Shown here piece after piece: positions 1 through 31,690 of a DNA stretch of 64,000 bases. The stretch comes from a virus (Duplodnaviria > Caudoviricetes): positions 1 through 64,000 of the IMG/VR virus record IMGVR_UViG_2595698517_000001, one strand, 5' to 3'. How positions within the stretch are numbered: the stretch's first letter is position 1; every line of letters begins with the position of its first letter. The notes under the pieces were generated by a model. It was not told where the DNA came from. It did not search any database and worked only from the letters and a program-made list of their open reading frames with translations. The translations under genes and the position numbers were made by a program.

Positions 1-36
1 ACTAAATCTCCTCCTAATATTCAATTGTGTAACTGA

Positions 37-109
37 TAGGGCTAGTAGGAGTCGAACCTACGACCTTGGGCTTATGAGACCCACGCTACTACCACTGAGC
101 TATAACCCT
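37..109 (-). tRNA. tRNA with CAT anticodon (elongator Met or Ile2)
   Basis: Acceptor AGGGTTA/TAGCCCT, anticodon arm TGGGT-CTCATAA-GCCCA, T loop GGTTCGACTCC. Confidence 0.9.
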
Positions 110-113
110 GTAT

Positions 114-197
114 TGGCAGGGGAGGAGGGAATCGAACCCCTTAGCGGTGGTTTTGGAGACCACTGACTTACCTCTCGTCTTTAAGCTTCTCTCCCCC
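114..197 (-). tRNA. tRNA-Trp(CCA), atypical long D region
   Basis: Anticodon arm GTGGT-CTCCAAA-ACCAC, T loop GGTTCGATTCC, encoded CCA; D region about 24 nt. Confidence 0.75.
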
Positions 198-253
198 ATA
201 AAAAGGGACAGGTGAGCAACCTGTCTGTAAACTTTGCAAAATCAACGAATTAA

Positions 254-326
254 TACCGAAGGTGGGACTCGAACCCACACTGTACGGTTTCTAAAACCGC
301 TATCTCTGCCATTGGATTACTTCGGC
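254..326 (-). tRNA. tRNA-Leu(TAG), short variable arm
   Basis: Acceptor GCCGAAG/CTTCGGT, anticodon arm GCGGT-TTTAGAA-ACCGT. Confidence 0.85.
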
Positions 327-331
327 ATATT

Positions 332-419
332 TGGTAGCGGAGGGGGGACTCGAACCCACCACGCCCATACGGACATAGCATTTTAAGTGCCATATGTCTA
401 CCAATTCCAACACTCCGCC
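332..419 (-). tRNA. tRNA-Leu(TAA)
   Basis: Anticodon arm TGGCA-CTTAAAA-TGCTA, long variable arm, CCA end. Confidence 0.9.
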
Positions 420-434
420 ATAATTTAATTTATT

Positions 435-511
435 TGGTACTAGGGGTAGGATTTGAACCTACGACCAATGCCTTATCAAGACACTGCTCTACCTGACTGA
501 GCTACCCTAGC
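435..511 (-). tRNA. tRNA-Ile(GAT)
   Basis: Anticodon arm GTGTC-TTGATAA-GGCAT, CCA end. Confidence 0.92.
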
Positions 512-512
512 A

Positions 513-599
513 TGGTGGGAAAGGCAGGACTCGAACCTGCAATGTATCTTACGTCACGGTTTTACAGACCGCTTGCTTCACCAATTTGCATACTCGCCC
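513..599 (-). tRNA. tRNA-Tyr(GTA)
   Basis: Anticodon arm GCGGT-CTGTAAA-ACCGT, long variable arm, CCA end. Confidence 0.92.
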
Positions 600-722
600 A
601 AAAAATCTCCTTCTCTTTTCCGTGGAGAAGGAGCAAAAAATATTGAAAGGAGAAAGAAATATGAAAATCAAACAAAAAAGTTTTGAGGGTTGACCCTAAG
701 ATTCGCACCTTCAGATCAACCA
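600..722 (-). ncRNA. Candidate sRNA in tRNA spacer (5' stem, anti-RBS/anti-AUG stretch, 3' hairpin plus U tract)
   Basis: Stem 688-695/714-721; minus strand reads UUUUCAUAUUUCUUUCUCCUUUC; 9-bp hairpin 607-615/625-633 followed by a T run. Confidence 0.35.
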
Positions 723-738
723 TGATACAAAGGGAATA

Positions 739-814
739 TGGTGGACGGAGTAGGGATCGAACCTACGACACGAGGATTTTCAGCCCTCTGCTCTACCAAC
801 TGAGCTATCCGTCC
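739..814 (-). tRNA. tRNA-Phe(GAA)
   Basis: Anticodon arm GAGGG-CTGAAAA-TCCTC, CCA end. Confidence 0.93.
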
Positions 815-929
815 ATAATGGGGATACCTTGAACCTGTATACTCAGGTATCCTAAGTTTTAACCTACTTCGATTGACACGGGACGCATCCCTGTAGGAGG
901 TAATTGTGAAAACCATAAACATAAACAAA

Positions 930-1004
930 TGCGGGTGGCAGGACTTGAACCTGCGACTTCTTGCTCCCAAAGCAAGCGCTCTAGCCAATCTGAGCTACAC
1001 CTAC
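930..1004 (-). tRNA. tRNA-Pro(TGG)
   Basis: Anticodon arm CTTGC-TTTGGGA-GCAAG. Confidence 0.9.
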
Positions 1005-1046
1005 ATAGTATATAACCCTATTTAAGGGACTCAATGCATTGAGTAA

Positions 1047-1118
1047 TCAGGATGAGGGGAATCGAACCCCTATTCAGTGATCCACAGTCACTTGCGTTAA
1101 CCGTTACGCCACACCCCG
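1047..1118 (-). tRNA. tRNA-His(GTG)
   Basis: Anticodon arm AGTGA-CTGTGGA-TCACT. Confidence 0.88.
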
Positions 1119-1201
1119 TAAACTAAGCCCAATACGTCTGATCGTCTGACTGGTAGGCATGTTATTGGACTTAGTTTACGAAGTACGGAACTTCGTGTTT
1201 A

Positions 1202-1272
1202 CTTCGGAGGATGGTCTCGAACCACCGATCATAGAGTCAAAGTCTATTGCCTTACCACTTGGCTACTCCGAA
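1202..1272 (-). tRNA. tRNA-Gln(TTG)
   Basis: Anticodon arm ATAGA-CTTTGAC-TCTAT. Confidence 0.9.
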
Positions 1273-1289
1273 AAAGTGTTTGTAAAGAG

Positions 1290-1318
1290 ATTGTATCATA
1301 GTCTGTAACTTTGTACAA
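1290..1318 (-). promoter_or_regulatory. sigma-A-type promoter inside tRNA cluster
   Basis: TTGTAC-N17-TACAAT with TG extension and AT-rich upstream tract. Confidence 0.6.
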
Positions 1319-1350
1319 CCCTATTTTTAAAATTTTTTGAAAATATTTTG

Positions 1351-1442
1351 TGGCGGAAGGAGTGGGATTCGAACCCACGCACGCTTTTACACGCCTAGCG
1401 GTTTTCAAGACCGACCTCTTTTATCCACTTGAGTACCCTTCC
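1351..1442 (-). tRNA. tRNA-Ser(TGA)
   Basis: Anticodon loop CTTGAAA, long variable arm, GCCA end. Confidence 0.92.
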
Positions 1443-1447
1443 ATAAA

Positions 1448-1522
1448 CATCCCATGTAGGACTCGAACCCACGATTAACGGGATAGAAGCCCGTTGCCTT
1501 GATCCAACTTGGCTAATGGGAT
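1448..1522 (-). tRNA. tRNA-Arg(TCT)
   Basis: Anticodon arm ACGGG-CTTCTAT-CCCGT. Confidence 0.9.
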
Positions 1523-1603
1523 AAAAAGGGACAGGTTTTTTCGTTGCCTGTCACAACGTTCCCTACCCTTTTGTATACCGTCTCAGAGGGATAACGGATA
1601 TTG

Positions 1604-1677
1604 CTCCCCTTGGAAGATTCGAACTTCCGATTCGCAGGACATAATCCCACTGCCTTGAACCGCTTGGCTAAAGGGGC
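1604..1677 (-). tRNA. tRNA with TAT anticodon (nominal Ile-AUA), atypical
   Basis: Anticodon arm GTGGG-ATTATGT-CCTGC, T loop AGTTCGAATCT, G1-A72 mismatch. Confidence 0.65.
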
Positions 1678-1680
1678 GGA

Positions 1681-1754
1681 AAGGGTATAAGGGATTCGAA
1701 CCCTCGTATCTCCGATAGAAAGTCGGATGTGTTTGACCACTTCACCAATACCCC
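1681..1754 (-). tRNA. tRNA-Glu(TTC)
   Basis: Anticodon arm TCCGA-CTTTCTA-TCGGA. Confidence 0.9.
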
Positions 1755-1883
1755 ACGATGGGAAAGGTTAGTTTCGTTTTTAATTTCGGACACCTTTCTA
1801 ACATAAAACTTCTACGAACATTGACTCGTGCAAGGCATTACCCCTGCTGTATACTCGCAGAATAAAAACGTATTAAGTCCTAA

Positions 1884-1954
1884 CGAGGTATAGGGGAGTT
1901 GAACCCCTGACTCTGCATAGACAGTGCAGTATTTTACCACTAAACTAATACCCC
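1884..1954 (-). tRNA. tRNA-Asp(GTC)
   Basis: Anticodon arm CTGCA-CTGTCTA-TGCAG. Confidence 0.9.
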
Positions 1955-1959
1955 ATGAT

Positions 1960-2035
1960 TGGAGGGACATGTCGGAATCGAACCGACCTCCCCTGGTTGG
2001 AAGCCAGGAATAATGAACCGATATACTAATGCCCC
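1960..2035 (-). tRNA. tRNA-Gly(TCC)
   Basis: Anticodon arm CCTGG-CTTCCAA-CCAGG, TCCA end. Confidence 0.9.
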
Positions 2036-2041
2036 CTATTT

Positions 2042-2132
2042 TGGCGGAGAGTACAGGATTTGAACCTGTGGTACGTTAAGGACGTACACCTATTTAGCAA
2101 ACAGGCACGATAAGCCACTCTGACAACTCTCC
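2042..2132 (-). tRNA. tRNA-Ser(GCT)
   Basis: Anticodon arm CCTGT-TTGCTAA-ATAGG, long variable arm, GCCA end. Confidence 0.92.
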
Positions 2133-2146
2133 ATAAATTTAATAAA

Positions 2147-2542
2147 TTAACTAATGGACATAAAACCTACCTTATAACAATCATATTTAGCAGTTAAGCT
2201 TAATTGATTTTTCTGTGTAACAACATCTTTAGGTATTTGGTACATTGTCCCTGATCCTGTTGCTACAAACAGATAGTCTACAGTAGAGTCCTGAAAGTTT
2301 TTAATTTTCTTAACACCTGTTGTAGAACTGGTTATAGTTCGTAGATAGACCTGATACATCCCATTATCACTTGTCGCTAAAGAAGTTTTAACTTGTACCT
2401 TCTTTAACTCGTTGTTAATATCGGCAATTAGGTCGTAGTCTTGGTTATCATTTAACGGTATGGAGACGTTATACCCTTTAGAAGTATAGTAGCCTATAGC
2501 CATACCTACACCGATATTACCTTTTTGAATTGGTGTCATCAT
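2147..2542 (-). CDS. PD-(D/E)XK endonuclease (PDDEXK_5 / I-Ssp6803I-like homing endonuclease family)
   Basis: KGNIG...GYNVSIPLNDNQDYDLIAD...KVQVKT motif; RBS GGAGGT. Confidence 0.8.
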   Translation of the reverse strand: MMTPIQKGNIGVGMAIGYYTSKGYNVSIPLNDNQDYDLIADINNELKKVQVKTSLATSDNGMYQVYLRTITSSTTGVKKIKNFQDSTVDYLFVATGSGTMYQIPKDVVTQKNQLSLTAKYDCYKVGFMSIS

Positions 2543-2618
2543 ACGATTATACCTCCCTATATGTACTATAGAGAGAAACGGTAGGAGCTTACCCTACACT
2601 TTAGTCTTTTCTCATGAT

Positions 2619-2693
2619 TGGCGCTCCTGGGTGGATTCGAACCACCGACCAACAGCTTAACAGGCTGCTGCGCTACCGCTACGCTACAGGAGC
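2619..2693 (-). tRNA. tRNA-Asn(GTT)
   Basis: Anticodon arm GCAGC-CTGTTAA-GCTGT, GCCA end. Confidence 0.92.
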
Positions 2694-2706
2694 AATATTT
2701 GATATA

Positions 2707-2780
2707 AGAAAGTGGTGGGATTCGAACCCACGAAAACTAGGGTTGCAATCTAGCCCGTTAAGCCACTTCGGTACACCTTC
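2707..2780 (-). tRNA. tRNA-Cys(GCA)
   Basis: Anticodon loop TTGCAAC, U discriminator. Confidence 0.88.
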
Positions 2781-2806
2781 ATGTTAGTTCCCCTGAGAAA
2801 ATTAGA

Positions 2807-2858
2807 ACGCAATCTGCAAGGTTTTCACGGGAGGGGAGCCACAGCTTGCAGATTGCGT
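2807..2858. repeat. Perfect 14-bp inverted repeat with 24-nt loop
   Basis: ACGCAATCTGCAAG (2807-2820) / CTTGCAGATTGCGT (2845-2858). Confidence 0.9.
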
Positions 2859-3079
2859 ATTAAGTTATAGAAGGAAGTATATAGGATCACCGTTTCCATA
2901 GGGTCACTATCCTTTTTCTCCTAATATTGATACTGGTGTGTGTTTACTGTTGTATCAAAGCCTAGTTATAGTATAACACACTCTGTACGATTCTAAACAT
3001 ACATATACAAAGTTTTTTAACTTTTTTCATTTATTTCTTGACTGGTAATTCATTTCCAATTTCGGACGTCTAACTATTA

Positions 3080-3552
3080 TTAATATTTTATAATAAGTTA
3101 TATAAGTATTTAATAATAATATACAGAACAGTTATAAATATAATAGTACATAAATTCCCTCTTTTTTGTCCTATTTAAATTTAAAATAAATAACCCTGAA
3201 ACAGGTGTCAAGATAGAACTATAATCTCTTCAAGCATTGATATAATAAGGTTTGTCAGGATATATGTTTGAACAATGTAATGGATCAGGTTAAACTTAAT
3301 GGTACATATTTAAGTTATTTTTGTCCTATTTAAATTATAACTCTGTCCTATTTATTATTTTACTTATTAATAATAAGTTATATAAGTAATTAATAATATA
3401 AATACAGAAGGAATAAAATTATAATATGTCAAGTTAGATTGTAATAATAACTATAAACCCCTTTGTATCAAGGGATTTAAATAGGTCAAAATAGTTTATA
3501 CACTTAGGGATAATAGGTCAGGAATAGGGGACTGTATAAAATAGGACAAAAA
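3080..3552. repeat. AT-rich non-coding region with TGTCCTATTTA direct and inverted repeats and a duplicated TAATAAGTTATATAAGTA block
   Basis: TGTCCTATTTA at 3167, 3322, 3344; inverted AATAGG(T/A)CA near 3480, 3512, 3540; duplicated block at 3091 and 3371. Confidence 0.75.
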
Positions 3553-3567
3553 TTTTTAAAGTGGTTG

Positions 3568-3596
3568 TTGACAATTAAACAACAAACTGATAAGAT
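3568..3596 (+). promoter_or_regulatory. sigma-A promoter for XRE regulator
   Basis: TTGACA-N17-TAAGAT with TG extension. Confidence 0.75.
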
Positions 3597-3681
3597 GAGG
3601 TCAAGATAAACAAACGACAACTAATCGTTCAGATTGAATATAAAGTAAGTTGTAAAATGTGACAAAACAAAATTAAGGGAG

Positions 3682-3969
3682 ATGTTTACAATGACAAATA
3701 AGAAAGCAGCTAAAAGCACATCAAGACCAAAACGAATGAAGAAATACCGTATGGACAAAGGATTAACGATTTATGATCTAGCGAAACGATTAGGTGTCGA
3801 TCACTCTTCAATTTGTAACTGGGAGAATGGTCAGAAGTACCCAAGACGTGGTAACTTAATGGCATTAGAAGATGTATTAGAAGCAAGTTACAGGGAGTTA
3901 TTCGAAGACTTAACACCTGAAGAAATTGTAGAAATTGACGATCGTAGATACAAAAGGGGGCAAGCATAA
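3682..3969 (+). CDS. XRE-family helix-turn-helix transcriptional regulator
   Basis: RMDKGLTIYDLAKRLGVDHSSICNWENGQKYP HTH_3 pattern. Confidence 0.9.
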   Translation: MFTMTNKKAAKSTSRPKRMKKYRMDKGLTIYDLAKRLGVDHSSICNWENGQKYPRRGNLMALEDVLEASYRELFEDLTPEEIVEIDDRRYKRGQA

Positions 3970-4163
3970 TGCATGGAACAGTAGCGTGTCCGTTTTGTAA
4001 CAACGAACAGTATGTAGAGTTTAATACTAATGGTAGGTGGGAACGACCTAAGTGTGCTGACTGTGGCAGCATATTTTATGCACAAGCCATCATGTCATTT
4101 GCTTCACAGCCGATTTCACAATGTAAAGAAGTAACGCCAACTTATATATGTCCCAAGGAATAA
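3969..4163 (+). CDS. Small zinc-ribbon protein
   Basis: CPFC and CADC; coupled TAATG overlap. Confidence 0.65.
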   Translation: MHGTVACPFCNNEQYVEFNTNGRWERPKCADCGSIFYAQAIMSFASQPISQCKEVTPTYICPKE

Positions 4164-4195
4164 AAAGAGAGACTAGGGAATCCCTGGTCTCTTTT
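4164..4195. terminator. Bidirectional intrinsic terminator
   Basis: GAGACTAGGGA-A-TCCCTGGTCTC-TTTT hairpin between convergent genes. Confidence 0.7.
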
Positions 4196-4427
4196 AGTAT
4201 TTTGGTACCATTTTTACAATCATCTGCGGGTTGATAAAGTAAAAGTCCCCTGACATATCTTCCATCGGATTCACTTTCATCATTGGTGCTCCGCTACCTT
4301 TAATGTAGTTACCTACAATCGAATCAGGAGCGTCAGGTACACCGAACGTGTTAAAGATTTCTAACGGTACATATGCTTTCTCGTTTAAAATTGTAGTGAC
4401 TTCCACTGACTTTAATTGTCTAGCCAT
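4194..4427 (-). CDS. Hypothetical protein
   Basis: ORF with RBS AAAGGA. Confidence 0.7.
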   Translation of the reverse strand: MARQLKSVEVTTILNEKAYVPLEIFNTFGVPDAPDSIVGNYIKGSGAPMMKVNPMEDMSGDFYFINPQMIVKMVPKY

Positions 4428-4443
4428 TTAAAATCATCCTTTC

Positions 4444-4770
4444 TTAGTGCTTGCTTGCCAAGCTGAAGATATAACTGATAAGTCCTCCAAGAACAACCAT
4501 CAGTGCGTTTTCAACAAGCTTACGTTGTCTGTCATCCCCTTTTTCATCCTTTGCTTCTAGGTCTTCTAGCTCCTGCTCTAGATGCTCGATTCTGTAAAAG
4601 AGGTGGGACTGTTTTTCTTCACTGATTGCCATTTTCTTATCAATATCTTGTACGATACCTTTAAGCTCATCGACAACCTTCTTCAGTTCAGCAGCGCTGT
4701 TTTCACGCTCTTGGAGAGTAGACTCAATTTCTTGTAGTTTTAATAATGCTTGTTGGTTGCTGTTATTCAC
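4444..4770 (-). CDS. Coiled-coil protein with C-terminal TM helix
   Basis: Heptad pattern then LVENALMVVLGGLISYIFSL. Confidence 0.75.
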   Translation of the reverse strand: MNNSNQQALLKLQEIESTLQERENSAAELKKVVDELKGIVQDIDKKMAISEEKQSHLFYRIEHLEQELEDLEAKDEKGDDRQRKLVENALMVVLGGLISYIFSLASKH

Positions 4771-4792
4771 TGAAACCCCACCTTTCTGCTAT

Positions 4793-5152
4793 TTACCATA
4801 TAAATCCTTTTCTTTTTTGTACCTTCTCATAACCCACATCGAAATGCTCCAAAAACTGTACCAGTACTTCTTTGCTTTCCTCATCTTCTACCTGCCCGTA
4901 CTGCGATTCTGTATTAATGGTAAACCGCACCTTTCCATCCTGCTTTAAGTCTAATTCGATTCGAACCCAATCCTTTTGATCTGATTCTATGTAATGAAAT
5001 GTAAAGTCGATTAGAAGACCTAATGACAATAATCTGTGTATCGTATACGTATGGTGGCTTGTCCTATTGCTATTAATCATATTGCTCACTAGGTCACGAA
5101 ATTCTGCCTTTAAATTAGGTTGCTGCTTACTCCCTACTCCGTTCATCTCCAA
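4793..5152 (-). CDS. Hypothetical protein
   Basis: ORF in operon, RBS GGAG. Confidence 0.7.
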   Translation of the reverse strand: MEMNGVGSKQQPNLKAEFRDLVSNMINSNRTSHHTYTIHRLLSLGLLIDFTFHYIESDQKDWVRIELDLKQDGKVRFTINTESQYGQVEDEESKEVLVQFLEHFDVGYEKVQKRKGFIW

Positions 5153-5432
5153 TCTCCTTTCGTTCGCTATTACTCGTTAGGGCAGTCGTAACTAGCACAA
5201 GTAGTAAACCGTTTTTGATCGTGATGGTTTGGTACATCCCGCTTCGAAAGAGGATAATATCTGATATAATAGAGATATACACTAATATGATGAATGCTAG
5301 AGCCTTCAGTGTTGGGAACACTAGTCTGAATAGTAATCCCTGGTGCAGGATAGACACTGTTATATACGACATATAAGTAACAATGACATAGAAGACAAGG
5401 GTTAAAATGACGGACGCAATCAAATAAATCAT
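5127..5432 (-). CDS. Membrane protein
   Basis: Three hydrophobic segments, RBS GAGGG. Confidence 0.75.
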   Translation of the reverse strand: MIYLIASVILTLVFYVIVTYMSYITVSILHQGLLFRLVFPTLKALAFIILVYISIISDIILFRSGMYQTITIKNGLLLVLVTTALTSNSERKEIGDERSRE

Positions 5433-5534
5433 TGTTTTCTACCCTCTTTGTCTTATTTATCCCTACTAATATAGAACTTTATAGCGTGTTTTTTGCAATA
5501 TCTTCTATATTAGAGATATAAAAATTTTTCTCAA

Positions 5535-5828
5535 GTGGAGGTTATGTCAATGTTGAAGTATAACAAGCAGATGCACATGAAGGTTATTCTCATTCTTCTA
5601 GCAGAAGCCTTAGCCATCTTGATTACAGACTTTGTATCAGCGAATATCGTTCCGATTGAACACACAACTATAACTTATATTGTATGTGGAGCGGTTTTAG
5701 CTTTAGCTGTAGTCAGTTCGTATGATTATATTATACGTAAAGGCGCTATGCGTGCTCAACAAGAGCGACAGGATTTACTGAATACAGCCATGCTTCGCTA
5801 CAGCACAAAGCATAGAGACCACAGATAA
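5535..5828 (+). CDS. Membrane protein (2 TM)
   Basis: RBS GGAGG; first gene of terminase operon after TATATTA motif. Confidence 0.75.
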   Translation: MEVMSMLKYNKQMHMKVILILLAEALAILITDFVSANIVPIEHTTITYIVCGAVLALAVVSSYDYIIRKGAMRAQQERQDLLNTAMLRYSTKHRDHR

Positions 5829-5839
5829 CAGGAAGGCAG

Positions 5840-6361
5840 GTGCTTCAAATGTTTGGATTATCAGAAAAAGATTTCGATGAGTTCAGAGACTTAGCACAGG
5901 ATTTTGCAGTGGAGGAATTAACACCAACTATTCTAAGTGAAGCAAAATTAATTACAATGTTAGTTGAGAAGGACGGGAAATTAGTACCTATTCCTTCGCA
6001 TATAAACAAGATGCTCTCTGATCTAGAAACAATTATCACGCTAACTACAGTAAATATGGCATGTGACTATGCAGACCTGGTTACAAAATTAGAATTAAGT
6101 GAAGCGGATATTATTAAGCACTTGCACGAAAAGTACGAGATTTACGTAACGAACCAGTTTATAAAATACTGTCTATGTTTCACTACTGAAGCGTCCGATC
6201 GCATTGTAGGCGAAATTATCCTGGAACTTCCGTATCTGTATGTAGATGCGATTAGTGATGAGGAGTTCGATGGGGACAAGTACTTGGAAGACAAGCTAAA
6301 AGCATACAATGACTACCTGGACAATAACCCAGTATTCAGTGAGGAAGACGAGGAAGAATAG
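5840..6361 (+). CDS. Hypothetical acidic protein
   Basis: ORF in terminase operon. Confidence 0.75.
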   Translation: MLQMFGLSEKDFDEFRDLAQDFAVEELTPTILSEAKLITMLVEKDGKLVPIPSHINKMLSDLETIITLTTVNMACDYADLVTKLELSEADIIKHLHEKYEIYVTNQFIKYCLCFTTEASDRIVGEIILELPYLYVDAISDEEFDGDKYLEDKLKAYNDYLDNNPVFSEEDEEE

Positions 6362-6371
6362 GTGAACTAAA

Positions 6372-6662
6372 ATGGTGACGAAAAAAGAGGTTGTAAGCAA
6401 AAGGCGGAAGCTTATGAGTCTAGCCGAAAAAAGTCACTCATTTAATAAAGGAGACAAGAGGGTGCATACTCCAAGGGTATGTGTGGTGTGTGGTCGCCCT
6501 CTATCCTCTTTGATTATTAATGAGAATAAGTACATAATTATACAGGCTCATACCCGCTATCATTTAAACGAATTGTTTATTGTAGACGCTTGTACAGACA
6601 TTACATCGTGCTACAGAACATTAAGGCAGAAAGGGGAGCTGATTGAGAATGTCAATGGCTGA
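6372..6662 (+). CDS. Zn-binding hypothetical protein
   Basis: CVVCGRPL...CTDITSC. Confidence 0.75.
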   Translation: MVTKKEVVSKRRKLMSLAEKSHSFNKGDKRVHTPRVCVVCGRPLSSLIINENKYIIIQAHTRYHLNELFIVDACTDITSCYRTLRQKGELIENVNG

Positions 6663-7068
6663 CAACATTAGAAACGGTATTAACAAGAGAAAGCAAGCAT
6701 TCGACAGTGAAAAGGAGCTTCGAGATGTTTTAAACTCTGCTTTGTCAAAGGGTGTAATGAAATTTATGCAGCGCATGGACGCAGGTGAAATTCCGATCGA
6801 TAACATTGCAGACCTACATCGTGTAGTTGGACTATACAAAGAGATGAATGGAATCGCAGACGTTATGGATGGTCAAGGTATGTCAGGTACGCTTCCTGAG
6901 ATTAACATGCGCCAGGATCAGGTACTAGATGAGAAGATTCGTGAAGGTAAAATGACAACAGATGAGGAAGGCAAGGTTAATGTCATGGACATGACCGCAG
7001 AAGAGGTTGCAGACTTAATCAGAGACTTCGACATAGCACAGAACAAAGAAAATGAGGGAACATTCTAA
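6643..7068 (+). CDS. Probable terminase small subunit
   Basis: Translationally coupled directly upstream of terL; size and position typical of Herelleviridae. Confidence 0.6.
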   Translation: MRMSMADNIRNGINKRKQAFDSEKELRDVLNSALSKGVMKFMQRMDAGEIPIDNIADLHRVVGLYKEMNGIADVMDGQGMSGTLPEINMRQDQVLDEKIREGKMTTDEEGKVNVMDMTAEEVADLIRDFDIAQNKENEGTF

Positions 7069-12820: not shown

Positions 12821-13607
12821 TATAATGTTAGTTGGGTTAATTGTCTTATTTGTGTTTCTCTATTCAGCAATCTTATTTGCGGGGTACATACGATCAAGGA
12901 ACCACCATCGAGAGAACAGGAAGACAATGCAATCTTTAAAAGAGATAGTCGAGGAAGTGCTATCGGAAGTAAAACATACCATTAGAAGGGAAGAGATTCA
13001 GATGACAAACGAGAAGAATAACGGTAAGTTATGTACAGATGATTTGAAAGTTTTAAAAGCAACAGCAGAATCAACAGCAGAAGCAACAGAAACAGGAGTA
13101 TTTTATATTCCTGAGTACAAAGTTGCACCTGTAAATGAGTTAACATTAACACAGTTACTTACAACTGAACCAACTGACGAAGATTACCAAACGGTGGTTG
13201 AATTACTTACAGATTTATTCCAAAAGCGTTACCAGGAATATAAGTTCCTTATTGCGAAATCACCTGACGAAATCGATCGTCCGCACCTATTACAAGTACA
13301 AAGTAACTTCGAGGAAGACCCTTACTTACATAAGTTGATTTTTGCTAAGTGTATGAATGCGAACCTAGATATGACTGAATTATCTAAACGATTTGCGGAT
13401 TACGCAGTAAAAGGCAATGTCATTGATCTAGGCGAAGACGCTGTTATCATTGTTGACGATGGTACAGGTTTAGCGGCTACAGGCGTATCACCAATTAATA
13501 GTGGACTTGAAGACTCAGCTATTACATACATTCTTGGGTTCATCAAGAAGTCAAACTGGGCTGCATGGCACGAGAAAGCATTCCCTAAAACAGAGGATGC
13601 AGAATAA
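12798..13607 (+). CDS. Hypothetical protein with N-terminal TM
   Basis: Long ORF with phage-like codon usage. Confidence 0.75.
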   Translation: MTSVIEYDIMLVGLIVLFVFLYSAILFAGYIRSRNHHRENRKTMQSLKEIVEEVLSEVKHTIRREEIQMTNEKNNGKLCTDDLKVLKATAESTAEATETGVFYIPEYKVAPVNELTLTQLLTTEPTDEDYQTVVELLTDLFQKRYQEYKFLIAKSPDEIDRPHLLQVQSNFEEDPYLHKLIFAKCMNANLDMTELSKRFADYAVKGNVIDLGEDAVIIVDDGTGLAATGVSPINSGLEDSAITYILGFIKKSNWAAWHEKAFPKTEDAE

Positions 13608-13988: not shown

Positions 13989-14108
13989 AGGTATAACTAG
14001 CATTAACATAAAAAAAGATACAGTCGGGGGCTAGTGACCGAGAGGACGGTGTTATATGTGGTATAATTAGTGTAAGGTTACTAATACCTACAGTAAAGGA
14101 GCATACAT

Positions 14109-14798
14109 ATGGCAGGTACAGAACGTTTATCATTGGACAAGCTTTCAAAACAGGAATTTCCATTAATTAAGAGTTTAGACAGAGAACAACAAGATATGGT
14201 TGCAAAACTTTATAAACATCAAAGAGTAATGGTAGATTCAGTAGCGGGTTCAGGAAAGACAACCGTTACAACACAAGCTATGAACGCTTTACTTAAAAAA
14301 GGTTTGATCGATAGATTGTACTATGTAGTATTCCCAGTCCAAGAGAAGTCTTTAGGTTTCTTACCTGGTGAAGTTTCAGATAAGATAAAAGAATATGCGG
14401 TACCATTTATGCAAGCGCTACAAGGTGCAAACATAAATACACAGTACTTAAACTACGAATTAATGACAGACGAGTTTGCTAACTATGATTACAAAGTAGC
14501 ACCTCATACATTTATGCGTGGTCGCACATTCTCTAAAGTAGGTATTATCATTGACGAAGCGCAAAACGCTACGAAAGATGAACTTAAAAAGGTTTTAACC
14601 CGTATCGATGATAGCTGCTATGTAGCTATTACAGGTCACAGTGGACAAATTGACATCGCTAAAGATGCGTCAGGCTTTGCAGCGTATATACACCACTTTA
14701 AACAAGGTGTAGAAACAGGAATATATCCTGATATGGGCTTTGCAAGTCTAACACATAACTATCGAGGTAAGTTTAGTTCATTTGCAGACCAACTGTAA
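14109..14798 (+). CDS. phoH: PhoH-family ATPase
   Basis: AGSGKT, LGFLPG, FMRGRTF, IIDEAQN, LTRI. Confidence 0.92.
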   Translation: MAGTERLSLDKLSKQEFPLIKSLDREQQDMVAKLYKHQRVMVDSVAGSGKTTVTTQAMNALLKKGLIDRLYYVVFPVQEKSLGFLPGEVSDKIKEYAVPFMQALQGANINTQYLNYELMTDEFANYDYKVAPHTFMRGRTFSKVGIIIDEAQNATKDELKKVLTRIDDSCYVAITGHSGQIDIAKDASGFAAYIHHFKQGVETGIYPDMGFASLTHNYRGKFSSFADQL

Positions 14799-28656: not shown

Positions 28657-28697
28657 CTTTACGATTTAGTTTGGCGTTGCTTTATGTTTCTGTAATC

Positions 28698-28726
28698 ATT
28701 ATCTCATCTTGTTTTCTAAAAGTCAA
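28698..28726 (-). promoter_or_regulatory. Early sigma-A promoter with conserved spacer
   Basis: TTGACT-TTTAGAAAACAAGATGA-GATAAT. Confidence 0.65.
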
Positions 28727-28735
28727 CAACATTTT

Positions 28736-28969
28736 TTAATTTGTTTTTCCTTCTAGTGAATGCCAGTAAAAATGTTTGTAAGCGATTGGCGTTGTAATCG
28801 TTCCGCCTGCTAATTCATCCGCTATGACAACCGCCTGGTCATTTATAGAAAGAATCTTTCCATGATAGCGGTATGACTGCTTTCCTTCAGTGGTGCAGAT
28901 GGTTACCGTATCACCAACTTGTGCAGCAGCTTTAAACTTCTGAATGCCTTCATTGTTCATGTTCGGCAC
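28736..28969 (-). CDS. Early hypothetical protein
   Basis: RBS AAAAGGAG. Confidence 0.7.
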   Translation of the reverse strand: MPNMNNEGIQKFKAAAQVGDTVTICTTEGKQSYRYHGKILSINDQAVVIADELAGGTITTPIAYKHFYWHSLEGKTN

Positions 28970-29013
28970 GCTCCTTTTATTTAGTTGTTTGTGTGTTCCC
29001 TTATCTGTCTCTT

Positions 29014-29042
29014 ACTTTACATGATTGTTTTCTAAAGGTCAA
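29014..29042 (-). promoter_or_regulatory. Early sigma-A promoter with conserved spacer
   Basis: TTGACC-TTTAGAAAACAATCATG-TAAAGT. Confidence 0.65.
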
Positions 29043-29112
29043 CAACAAAATGCAAATTTCTTTAAAAAACTTTTCCTTCTATTATAGGGAAAATAAATCA
29101 TTCCAACGTCCT

Positions 29113-30110
29113 AGTTATCAGAATATTCAGTGTATTTAACTTTTTGAATGTTCTGATCCGACTGCTGAGACGATCGTAACTATATCGTAAAATTAGAATT
29201 AAAAAATTGTCTGAATATTCTGTAAATGGTGCTCTCACCCACGATCCAAATTATTGTCTTAATTTTCAGAATTGTCAGAATACTTAGAATAGTCATAATA
29301 GTAACTACATTTAGTCTATAGGATATAGGCAAAATACAGCCCAGGTTATACAGTCCTATGATTCATTTTAAGGCACCCAGGAGCCCGCACACGGGTTTTT
29401 ACGCTCCATCCCTAACAAGTGTATTACCTAGACCGCTAGAAACGCACCTGGGCAATTTGAGGTAGTAAAACCCACCTATACCAGGCGTTTAGAAATTGTC
29501 AGAATATTCTGCTCATTATACACATTATAATTATCTGACAATTAGTTTCATACTTTCAGCGATATGTCAAGTAAACAGTGTATTCTAAATATTCTGACAA
29601 TTGGAGCAGGGCTATACCATACACGACACGCTATGTCAAGTTAAAAGTATATTCTGAATTGTCAGTCAATTTAGTTTCATGTATATACCCAACTGTCAAG
29701 TAAAAAGAATATTCAGTCAATTCAAAATCATAAATATAGCACGATGTCAAGTAGTTAATATATTTAGAATAGTCTGACAATTATACGTGCAGCTGCTACC
29801 ACATATAATAGCTAGTGTCAAGTTAATAGTTTATTCTGAATTGTCAGTAAATTATAATCATTACAAGATGATACTATATGCAGAATATTAAATAGTCAGT
29901 CAATTTAGAATCATGAATATAGTATAGTGTCAAGTTAATTATATATTCTGAATTGTCAGTTAATTTTAATGATTCTAAAGTAAGAGCCTATATAGTATAC
30001 AGAATAGTCTGACAATTATAATTAGTATAGTTATCTGAATTGCTTAAATATTCTGACAATTGATTACACGGGCTCCTGGTATTTATAATTGACGAAATAT
30101 TCTGACAATT
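29113..30110. repeat. Non-coding array of CodY-box-like 15-mers with interspersed TGTCAAG elements
   Basis: AATTGTCWGAATATT / AATATTCTGACAATT variants at 29113, 29205, 29261, 29270, 29494, 29529, 29588, 29657, 29708, 29768, 29839, 29891, 29951, 30003, 30047, 30096. Confidence 0.85.
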
Positions 30111-30138
30111 TTCCTCGGGCGGCTCGTCCAATCCTGGT

Positions 30139-30294
30139 GCAGGGAGCTACTAGCAATTTCGACCTTTTTGCAGGGAGCTACTAAGGTTTTCAGACTTGGC
30201 GCAGGGAGCTACTAGTAAATTACCCCTATAAAAGAAACTCCCTACTTGGTGCAGGGAGCTACTTACGTTTTACTATATGGTGCAGGGAGCTACT
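30139..30294. repeat. Five exact direct repeats GCAGGGAGCTACT
   Basis: Starts 30139, 30170, 30201, 30251, 30282 (periods 31, 31, 50, 31). Confidence 0.95.
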
Positions 30295-30580
30295 AGAGTT
30301 CCTTGACAATTGGTACGAATGTTGGATCAAGTACGTTGTATATATCCTCTGCGTCTTCCCCTGTGATCTCATTCAGTATAGCTGCCGCTGCTTCAAACAC
30401 GTCTAGCTTGACCGTACGGTTCTTTGAACGCTTCCAACCCTCATTACCTAGCTTCCATTCTACGATCGCTATATAAGCTTGTCCTTTAAGCGTACAGTGT
30501 ATAATATCATGTCGTACCTTATCAGACACCTTAACCTCTCCTATTTGTACCTCTGTGTCCCATTTAAACTCTTTAGCCAT
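30293..30580 (-). CDS. PC4/YdbC-like ssDNA-binding protein (tentative)
   Basis: Beta-strand pattern LKGQAYIAIVEW...GWKRSK...VKLDVF then helix; RBS AGGAGGAG. Confidence 0.55.
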   Translation of the reverse strand: MAKEFKWDTEVQIGEVKVSDKVRHDIIHCTLKGQAYIAIVEWKLGNEGWKRSKNRTVKLDVFEAAAAILNEITGEDAEDIYNVLDPTFVPIVKEL

Positions 30581-31105: not shown

Positions 31106-31247
31106 TACGTATCTCCTCAGCTTCCTGTTTAAGTTTAGCTATCCTGGCATCAGTCTCCTGCTTCTGCTTCATAAAACGTTCGTAGTCCGCTTGAGATAGC
31201 TTAGGTCTCTTACGTCTAGGTACTGCATAGTGAACCCACTCACGCAT
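31083..31247 (-). CDS. 54-aa hypothetical protein not in ORF track (MREWVHYAVPRRKRPK...)
   Basis: RBS AGGAGG; fills gap between neighbours. Confidence 0.6.
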   Translation of the reverse strand: MREWVHYAVPRRKRPKLSQADYERFMKQKQETDARIAKLKQEAEEIRNGKREDV

Positions 31248-31259
31248 ACTATATACCTC

Positions 31260-31508
31260 CTATCGTTTAAATCCTCTATACTTAGCAGCAGCGGGACGTA
31301 TCTTCTTAGCCTTGTCCCAAAACTGACGTAGTATCTTCTTCTGTGACAGCCCTGCACCGTCATAAGAGAAAGTCGTGTTCGTAGTATGATTCGTATAGTG
31401 ACCATATAAACCATTCTCACCCTCGATCAGTACTAATGTGAATACGCCCCCTATGTCAAATGTCCTGGGCTCGTTAACTATGTATACAGGTTGTTCGTTC
31501 GTAAGCAT
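31260..31508 (-). CDS. Hypothetical protein
   Basis: RBS GGAGG; TTGACT promoter near 31560. Confidence 0.7.
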   Translation of the reverse strand: MLTNEQPVYIVNEPRTFDIGGVFTLVLIEGENGLYGHYTNHTTNTTFSYDGAGLSQKKILRQFWDKAKKIRPAAAKYRGFKR

Positions 31509-31690
31509 ACTATAACCTCCCCTCTATATACTCTATATACTACAACACTGTATACCCACAGTCAACAACTAATTAGCAAATAAACACATATACTATACAT
31601 ATAACGGGAAATATAAGCATATAATACTCATTTATCCTCAAATAACGCAAAAAAGAACTGCCCCGTTAAGAGCAGCCCTTATACTATGTA

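Follow-up and report, generated by a model that had tools for sequence, protein, structure and literature searches.

A gene-free gap in a phage genome carries a dense, phased array of 15-mers that resemble the box recognized by the host regulator CodY. The gap lies in a 64-kb stretch of DNA (the window, within which all positions are given) that forms the first part of a 156,176-bp virus record, IMGVR_UViG_2595698517_000001. In this region the closest matches, at 80–90% identity, are phages of the Bacillus cereus group belonging to the genus Tsarbombavirus (Herelleviridae, Bastillevirinae), namely 0524phi7-1, MarvelLand, QCM8, TsarBomba, BC-T25, Emiliahah, and PBC6; members of the Herelleviridae are strictly virulent. 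The motif, its enrichment, its phasing, its conservation, its location in a terminal repeat, and its recurrence in unrelated phages are matters of observation, and the sequence supports the view that the array consists of CodY-type boxes in the overlapping layout typical of CodY. CodY, a global nutrient regulator of the host, becomes active on binding GTP and branched-chain amino acids. Our favored reading, to which we give about even chances, is that the gap is a multi-operator array that would load host CodY onto the long terminal repeat of the phage. We infer CodY as the binder, together with every consequence of binding considered below.

The array, its phasing, and its conservation

Sites were scored by their mismatches to the 15-bp CodY consensus AATTTTCWGAAAATT, which one study gives as the consensus used by CodY of B. 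cereus and B. anthracis (PMC5633148), and their numbers were compared with those in 1000 dinucleotide-preserving shuffles of the region. Between 29113 and 30110 there are 16 sites with three or fewer mismatches and 21 with four or fewer, built from phased 9-bp units of the form AAT(T/A)(T/G)TCWG. Seven sites have exactly two mismatches (29205, 29494, 29529, 29588, 29839, 30047, and 30096), and all seven are where an earlier note on this DNA, made from the sequence alone, had placed them. A further nine have three mismatches and five have four; the note had put the sites with three or four mismatches at about nine. The shuffles gave means of 0.005, 0.13, and 1.11 sites at thresholds of two, three, and four mismatches, and none reached the observed 7, 16, and 21. 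Within the window, the region holds seven of the eight sites with two or fewer mismatches and 16 of the 23 with three or fewer. The earlier note had proposed a scan of the whole genome and of relatives: counted by mismatches, the region holds 7/12 and 16/31 of the genome's sites at the same two thresholds, and the array is present in all seven relatives.

The 9-bp half of the box, AATTTTCWG, at two or fewer mismatches, is found in 43 units in the 1-kb bin 29000–30000, as against a genome median of 7. The gap contains 11 of the 13 genome copies of the 9-mer AATTGTCAG and eight of the 12 copies of AATATTCTG, and these dominant 9-mers are joined head to tail, as AATTGTCAG–AATATTCTG and as TATTCTG–AATTGTCAG–TNAATT. 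Six of the 16 sites have a partner with four or fewer mismatches at +9 or −9, compared with a null mean of 0.35, and 0 of 5000 simulations reached six; among partner offsets of 1 to 24, only 9 yielded any such partner. Several of the 9-bp partners listed in the earlier note were borne out, namely 29205/29214 (two and three mismatches), 29261/29270 (three and three), 29113/29122 (three and four), and 29494/29503 (two and four), whereas the proposed members at 29279 and 29648 have five mismatches. This is the phasing of known CodY operators: according to PMC10415144, regulation by CodY typically involves two 15-mers that overlap by 6 nt and are bound cooperatively by two dimers, three or more overlapping sites lead to higher oligomers, and sites with up to five mismatches function.

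The departures of the phage motif from the consensus are systematic and not randomly scattered. Among sites pre-selected at three or fewer mismatches, positions 1–3, 6–7, 9–10, and 13–15 are almost always those of the consensus and variation is confined to positions 4–5 and 11–12, with T or A at position 4 and G or T at position 5. The boxes at 29588, 30047, and 30096 are the identical 15-mer AATATTCTGACAATT, which is the commonest phage box. The same source describes CodY as reading chiefly a narrow A/T minor groove by its shape, each half-site contributing two base-specific hydrogen bonds, and describes the T beside the central C and the A beside the G as near-invariant, naming T15 and T15′ of a 24-nt site (PMC10415144). 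By our own reading, T15 and T15′ correspond to positions 6 and 10 of the box. A T stands at position 6 in 27 of the 32 symmetrized half-sites of the window and in 198 of 234 over eight phages, proportions that are inflated by the pre-selection of sites.

The array can be divided into several parts. A composite site beginning AATTGTCTGAATATTCTG (29205–29228, plus strand) consists of two overlapping boxes with two and three mismatches and is nearly invariant in eight phages; a similar site is retained in the Caeruleovirus Bcp1. It is followed by a tandem run of about five 9-bp units (29253–29302, plus strand), to which Tandem Repeats Finder assigns a period of 9 and in which the segment 29261–29284 differs, as compared by eye, at three of 24 positions from the optimized double CodY site of crystal structures (PMC10415144). 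Next comes a GC-richer core (29330–29490) that lacks boxes and differs among relatives in the alignment, and then boxes 29494/29503 and 29529 (29494–29543), which lie within a block that does not vary across all eight phages. From 29548 to 30017 (plus strand; Tandem Repeats Finder period 112) there follow five to six tandem units, diverged from one another and 51–112 bp long. Each contains a TGTCAAGT word and then a box pair at a fixed distance of +23 (once +14), and the words at 29565, 29634, 29694, 29745, 29816, and 29928 are six of the seven copies in the genome. The array closes with two AATATTCTGACAATT boxes (30038–30110), the second of which, at 30096, is part of a 23-bp block, ATTGACGAAATATTCTGACAATT, that is invariant in the eight phages. 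Just beyond lies a second repeat family unrelated to the boxes: five direct repeats of GCAGGGAGCTACT (30139–30294, plus strand; copies at 30139, 30170, 30201, 30251, and 30282), spaced 31–50 bp apart and found nowhere else in the genome. These repeats are retained in Tsarbombavirus, Caeruleovirus, and Bastillevirus.

The gap that houses the array (28970–30292; 1,323 bp; GC 0.34) contains no open reading frame (ORF) longer than 50 aa, and no gene is called in the homologous gap in 6/7 annotated relatives, MarvelLand having two calls; the earlier description of an ORF-free kilobase is therefore sound. In QCM8 the homologous gap falls within an annotated repeat_region (1–6731), the terminal repeat. 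The records of TsarBomba, QCM8, P59, and OTooleKemple52 each contain the sites in duplicate, the two sets separated by a constant offset, which places the array in both copies of the terminal repeat. The record that holds the window is a collapsed, permuted assembly, and for this reason the repeat is met at 29–30 kb.

We aligned the window phage with seven Tsarbombavirus relatives. All seven carry the array, with 11–19 sites at three or fewer mismatches per gap and 0–1 in the flanks examined. Among fully occupied alignment columns, 118 of 148 box columns were invariant as against 303 of 548 non-box columns, a difference reached by 44 of 2000 circular shifts of the box mask. Several boxes lie in blocks that are invariant in all eight phages amid varying neighbor sequence, and whole array units have been gained and lost between relatives. 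As judged from the alignment, selection appears to act on the boxes as such and not on their number and spacing.

These comparisons bear on an explanation that dispenses with a sequence-specific binder, in which the array would be a decaying tandem duplication, or a structural element (through curvature or easy melting), that happens to contain a CodY-like word. Such an origin would account for the tandem units of 29548–30017, for the differing number of units between relatives, and for the plain 9-bp, microsatellite-like runs of a metagenomic contig described below (G003). It would not account for the boxes at 29113, 29205, 29261, 29494, 29529, 30047, and 30096, which stand in unique sequence contexts, nor for the better conservation of boxes than of the remainder of the units, which have diverged to 60–76% identity and yet retain the box, nor for the persistence of arrays across genera. 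We regard it as highly improbable.

Arrays in other phages

Arrays are also present in other Bastillevirinae. Bastille (Bastillevirus) has nine sites within 2.3 kb, Bequatrovirus B4 has five within 1.3 kb, and OTooleKemple52 (Bastillevirus) has nine at nt 96–1877 of its terminal repeat, whose length, about 2.4 kb, was derived from the offset between copies. The Cytobacillus phage P59 has 21 sites per repeat copy, many of them recurring regularly every 40 bp or so, and a shorter word, AGCTACT, alternates with its CodY-like boxes. The Caeruleoviruses Bcp1, Hobo, and JBP901 have a gap of about 400 bp with only two composite sites together with GCAGGGAGCTACT repeats. In Bcp1 (3090–3210 of the examined piece) we noted by eye a plus-strand promoter-like site (TTGACA-17-TACAAT) followed directly by a composite CodY-like box, in antisense orientation to the bordering genes.

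Outside the Herelleviridae we scanned IMG/VR with one 18-mer and carried out BLAST searches with array sequences. Dense arrays were found in Sextaecvirus siphophages of Mammaliicoccus and Staphylococcus (one relative is labeled as an Arcanobacterium phage). In Staphylococcus phage vB-SscS-F1, 7/12 sites fall within 420 bp (31117–31537 of its record), in a divergent intergenic region between a leftward and a rightward block of genes. Metagenomic contig G001, all of whose terL relatives belong to Firmicutes phages, has 46 sites with two or fewer mismatches in 38.5 kb, 34 of which lie outside the ORFs that cover 82% of it. In its first 12 kb, an early-gene-like module has dozens of CodY-like boxes distributed among many of its intergenic regions, and some of them, by eye, overlap promoter-like sites of the form TTGTCA...TATAAT, as the operators of a repressor would.

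Two further contigs, G002 and G004, crowd 16 and 13 sites, respectively, into about 450 bp, and one of those in G002 is a perfect consensus box. Here some 330 bp of near-consensus overlapping boxes, and then eight GAGAGTTGACGG repeats, are located between a terS-like gene and terL (1–720 and 5150–5750, respectively, of the examined pieces), and the locus may serve packaging by way of a host factor. The best annotated relative of their TerL is that of a [Clostridium] innocuum phage (41%), and there was one 38% match among 400 genomes of one phylum. Contig G003 has 9-bp tandem runs that resemble the CodY half-unit, with GATTCAGAA about 30 times and GAGTATTCT about ten times (12870–13170 and 14000–14200 of the examined piece), and its helicase-like protein matches phages of many phyla. 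The variable positions and their letters (A at 4, G at 5) recur in the arrays of unrelated phages.

This distribution leads us to a broader proposal, which we put forward tentatively and at well under even chances: at least three unrelated lineages of Firmicutes phages would have independently built arrays of overlapping CodY operators that load CodY, either as a licence that would permit early development, replication, or packaging solely while CodY is in its active state, or, once present in many copies, as a drain of CodY from the host regulon. The lineages in question would be the Bastillevirinae myophages, the Sextaecvirus siphophages, and the metagenomic phages of Bacillales type and gut type.

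CodY or another binder

Is the phage variant of the box used in bacteria? Table 1 of a study of the Streptococcus salivarius CodY regulon gives boxes predicted ahead of genes that are derepressed when codY is mutated. The predicted thrC box is AATATTCTGACAATT, letter for letter, while those of ilvE and lysC are AATTGTCAGAATTTT and that of livK is AATTGTCTGATAATT, with G5 and C11 as in the phage. Since the boxes of all four genes carry them, G5 and C11 are ordinary in predicted CodY boxes; the alternative letters A at 4 and G at 5 are likewise common to the phage motif and the S. salivarius boxes. A scan of species-representative genomes for exact AATATTCTGACAATT returned at least 120 stretches, of which 80 were examined. 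Among the matches listed, the 15-mer is followed after 48–100 bp by a Peripla_BP_6 gene, for a branched-chain amino-acid transporter of LivJ type, in Granulicatella, Trichococcus, and a metagenome-assembled genome (MAG) of the Carnobacteriaceae, and CodY is encoded in all three of these Lactobacillales. Loci without a frame of at least 100 aa across the site numbered 20 of 35 with a Firmicutes label and nine of 45 others, as classified by record titles and a crude frame test, and we take this split as a weak pointer.

The case for host CodY is supported, at the level of sequence, by the motif, its phasing, the tolerated variants, the use of the variant in bacterial operators, the recurrence of arrays in phages with no detectable DNA-binding protein in common, and the lack of a phage homolog of CodY. 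As to the last, we found no match to the CodY GAF domain (PF06018) in the window phage and none to the CodY helix-turn-helix (HTH) domain (PF08222) in contigs G001–G005, and a phage-encoded CodY was set aside as a candidate. The earlier note had called the region an array of CodY operators. The box and the overlapping layout are in keeping with that name by sequence. As to placement, a CodY operator would overlap a promoter or stand downstream of it as a roadblock; here the nearest box is about 70 bp upstream of the −35 element of a promoter-like site (29042–29014, minus strand; TTGACC-17-TAAAGT, from a consensus scan), and most boxes are 0.2–1 kb away from it.

Several observations weigh against host CodY. 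None of the 117 sites in the eight Tsarbombaviruses has fewer than two mismatches to the consensus, and the Bastillevirinae hold, across genera, to one strict box variant, AATTGTCAGAATATT, and never the consensus, which fits a binder with an optimum of its own. The arrays always stand beside second, GC-richer direct repeats (GCAGGGAGCTACT here, AGCTACT in P59, and GAGAGTTGACGG in G002 and G004), and this arrangement has the look of an origin or a packaging site. Caeruleoviruses have the same hosts and carry only the two composite sites, and there is no array in SPO1, Staphylococcus phage K, or Listeria phage A511, which have 2, 2, and 4 scattered sites; the Firmicutes hosts of these three phages have CodY. 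SPO1-type phages, moreover, shut off host transcription early, and a sponge that acted through host genes would therefore be blunted. In the bacterial scan, ten genes downstream of AATATTCTGACAATT were examined, and three were of LivJ type, one was hpf, and six fell outside known CodY themes; one Lachnospiraceae and one Erysipelotrichaceae MAG with the 15-mer gave no match to the CodY GAF domain, although MAGs may be incomplete.

A number of these points would be expected if the boxes were iterons for a DNA-binding protein encoded by the phage, with the gap serving as an origin, a packaging or terminus-processing site, or a centromere-like array, and with the likeness to CodY boxes arising by convergence of A/T-rich 9-bp repeats. 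The motif is concentrated at one locus per genome (14 of the 17 genome matches to the 18-mer AATTGTCWGAATATTCTG, at three or fewer mismatches, are in the gap), the array of G002 and G004 is situated where a packaging site would be, the units of P59 are regularly interleaved with a second word, and within the Herelleviridae the array is limited to one lineage, though other members infect Firmicutes. An iteron-type origin or a pac site would have direct repeats bound by a phage initiator or small terminase encoded close by, and an A/T-rich stretch for unwinding. At the gap itself there are two repeat families and A/T-rich DNA, the neighboring genes matched no family of known function, and there is no turn in GC skew; the skew at the locus mainly follows the direction of transcription. 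Nor does a protein common to all array-bearing phages emerge at the level of BLAST. When ORFs of at least 50 aa from G001–G004 were compared by blastp with the window phage (E ≤ 1e-4), only an Xre-type HTH protein, a VG64/RDF-type protein, and structural genes matched. The Xre-type match extends over 48 aa at 31–33% identity, and the gene is conserved in TsarBomba, QCM8, P59, and OTooleKemple52, which speaks for a phage binder; the gene is missing from vB-SscS-F1, however, and its own promoter region has different repeats and no box, and we therefore rejected it. Against the iteron reading, too, unrelated phages and bacterial operators share the alternative letters found at positions 4 and 5, and the exact 15-mer precedes LivJ-type genes of CodY-encoding bacteria. 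We rate a phage-encoded binder, the main rival, as less likely than host CodY. If the binder were a phage protein after all, the locus would mark an unrecognized cis-element of the Bastillevirinae terminal repeat, for an origin, packaging, or terminus processing.

Two other candidates were examined and rejected. A PC4-like protein encoded next to the array was found in all five Bastillevirinae searched, but in four of them its gene is 6–12 kb from the array, the two not being adjacent in P59, OTooleKemple52, Bastille, and B4. Boxes for Spo0A (TGNCGAA) are not enriched, with one in the gap (30090) as against 63 genome-wide, a density of 0.40 per kb.

A further explanation holds that the gap is a cluster of promoters or of small non-coding RNA genes, its units being promoter–operator cassettes for sense or antisense transcripts. 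The words TTGTCA and TTGACA do occur within or beside boxes, and the promoter-like sites seen by eye in Bcp1 and G001 would be compatible with it, as would a 2,200-nt contig from an RNA library (run X5) that spans 28685–30062 at a depth like that of its neighbors. Contigs of this kind, from run X5 and likewise from run X11, can stem from DNA, however, and show neither transcription nor strand nor ends; runs X23 and X24 yielded none. Sigma-70-type sites (−35 and −10 elements separated by 16–18 bp) number 11, as against 8.5 ± 2.7 in shuffles, so promoters are not enriched, and six ACTTGACA words lack, by eye, an acceptable −10 element at 16–18 bp. The sole match in Rfam 15 is to the snoRNA snR67, at 21.7 bits against a gathering threshold of 55 (E 0.16), as expected by chance, and the consensus fold of the core (29296–29500) computed with alifold is weak on both strands (−10.6 and −16.9 kcal/mol over 205 columns). 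We consider this explanation very unlikely.

How, then, might an array loaded with host CodY act? Each composite site comprises two to five phased 9-bp units on which CodY dimers would assemble cooperatively into tetramers and higher oligomers, and each repeat copy, with its dozen or so composite sites, would make a high-capacity landing pad. The number and spacing of units drift, the box sequence and the 9-bp phase are held, and most boxes are far from the promoter-like site, and for these reasons we favor a mechanism in which the array acts mainly by the amount of CodY that it binds. Oligomers of active CodY would cover the terminal repeat and could impose a nutrient-dependent nucleoprotein state on the first-entering, duplicated end of the genome. 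After replication, two repeat copies per genome, each with about a dozen composite sites, would amount to a large sink for CodY. The phage could gain a licence, dependent on nutrients, for what happens early at the repeat, or else a host regulon freed from repression; the early shut-off of host transcription in SPO1-type phages speaks against the latter. The promoter-proximal sites at 29205–29290 may be an ordinary operator, since they are retained in Caeruleovirus.

The array invites comparison with several known systems. Like chromosomal CodY operators of Firmicutes, among them hutP and ureA of B. subtilis as described in PMC10415144, it is composed of 15-bp pseudo-palindromes at a 9-bp offset, in two to three or more phased units with two to five mismatches. 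Unlike those operators, which have one to three boxes beside a promoter, it spreads some 16–21 boxes over a kilobase of the terminal repeat of a virulent phage, with no clear promoter partner. The nearest precedent is that of the lytic Bacillus phages phi29 and Nf, which carry cis-sites for the host global regulator Spo0A (PMC2731898). As in those phages, a virulent Bacillus phage would here bear sites, in our case predicted ones, for a host global regulator of nutritional or developmental state that would couple its cycle to host physiology. The Spo0A sites of phi29 are reportedly few and located at promoters and origins, whereas here the regulator and the motif are different and the sites form a kilobase array in a terminal repeat. 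Relative to phi29 and Spo0A, the novelty would lie in the regulator and the architecture, and in how widely such arrays occur among phages.

Other likenesses concern the form of the locus. Iteron, centromere, and packaging arrays include lambda cosB with its host-factor site, SPP1 pac, and TubR–tubC. With these the array shares its many phased direct repeats, its lack of genes, a second repeat family, and, in G002 and G004, a terS-like neighbor; it differs from them in that no cognate phage protein was identified and in that the motif is the box of a host regulator and recurs in unrelated phages. The E. coli datA locus is a chromosomal titration site for DnaA, the cell's own initiator. As with datA, the effect of the array would stem from the amount of protein bound and not from an adjacent promoter, but the array is borne by a phage and would serve a host nutrient regulator, whereas datA is chromosomal; the literature searched gave no example of a nutrient regulator titrated by a phage-borne sink. 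Finally, the terminal repeat of phage T5 contains a gene-free, repeat-rich "injection stop" region, and the array resembles it in being a gene-free stretch of direct and inverted repeats within a long terminal repeat that carries early genes. Bastillevirinae are not known to inject their DNA in two steps. TubR is also of interest with respect to its fold, in that it binds DNA through a dimerized winged helix similar to that of CodY (PMC10415144).

The earlier note knew of no description of such an array in phages, and we came to the same result: none was found in the literature searched, which also yielded no description of CodY boxes in phages or of repeat arrays in Bastillevirinae, and the paper on 0524phi7-1 makes no mention of the region, nor of non-coding or intergenic DNA, terminal repeats, origins, or promoters. 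If CodY binds, virulent phages of Bacillus and Staphylococcus would carry a read-out of the GTP and branched-chain amino-acid status of their hosts, a signal that decides growth, the production of virulence factors, and sporulation. A second global regulator, and as a new architecture a terminal-repeat array a kilobase long, would join the single well-studied case of phi29 and Spo0A; should the broader proposal hold, phages would have a general, undescribed way to read or rewire host nutrient sensing. Binding would also bear on the dependence of phage yield on medium and growth phase, which is of relevance to phages used in biocontrol of the B. cereus group, and the arrays would be natural, high-capacity decoys for CodY that could be used as tools.

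Genes and elements around the array

The gap is bordered by two small, early-type genes, both on the minus strand, and in searches against families neither matched one of known function. The first gene downstream of the array (28736–28969) encodes a protein of 77 aa in phrog_17652, to which no function is assigned. The last gene upstream (30293–30580) encodes a protein of 95 aa in phrog_2404 that is annotated in relatives as a PC4-like ssDNA-binding or DNA-binding protein. The earlier note had envisaged the array as possibly titrating host CodY or gating an early operon just downstream of it; given the orientation of the bordering genes, the downstream operon instead begins at 28969 and runs leftwards. 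The upstream minus-strand operon is closed by a terminator-like hairpin with a T-run (30236–30260, minus strand; from a consensus scan only), which is formed by one of the GCAGGGAGCTACT copies.

An A/T-rich, non-coding block of 73 bp (29034–29106) is located 5′ of the promoter-like site of the downstream gene and is invariant in the alignment of the eight Tsarbombaviruses. A megablast search gave matches to it (query positions 135–207) in 17 records of other Bastillevirinae at about 83% identity, one of which is labeled as a Xanthomonas phage.

Finally, we note that the window contains a second gene-free, A/T-rich stretch (2543–3969; GC 0.28), which precedes the Xre-type HTH gene (3682–3969, plus strand). 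It contains repeated words resembling TGTCCTATTTA, which are probably operators of the Xre-type protein itself.

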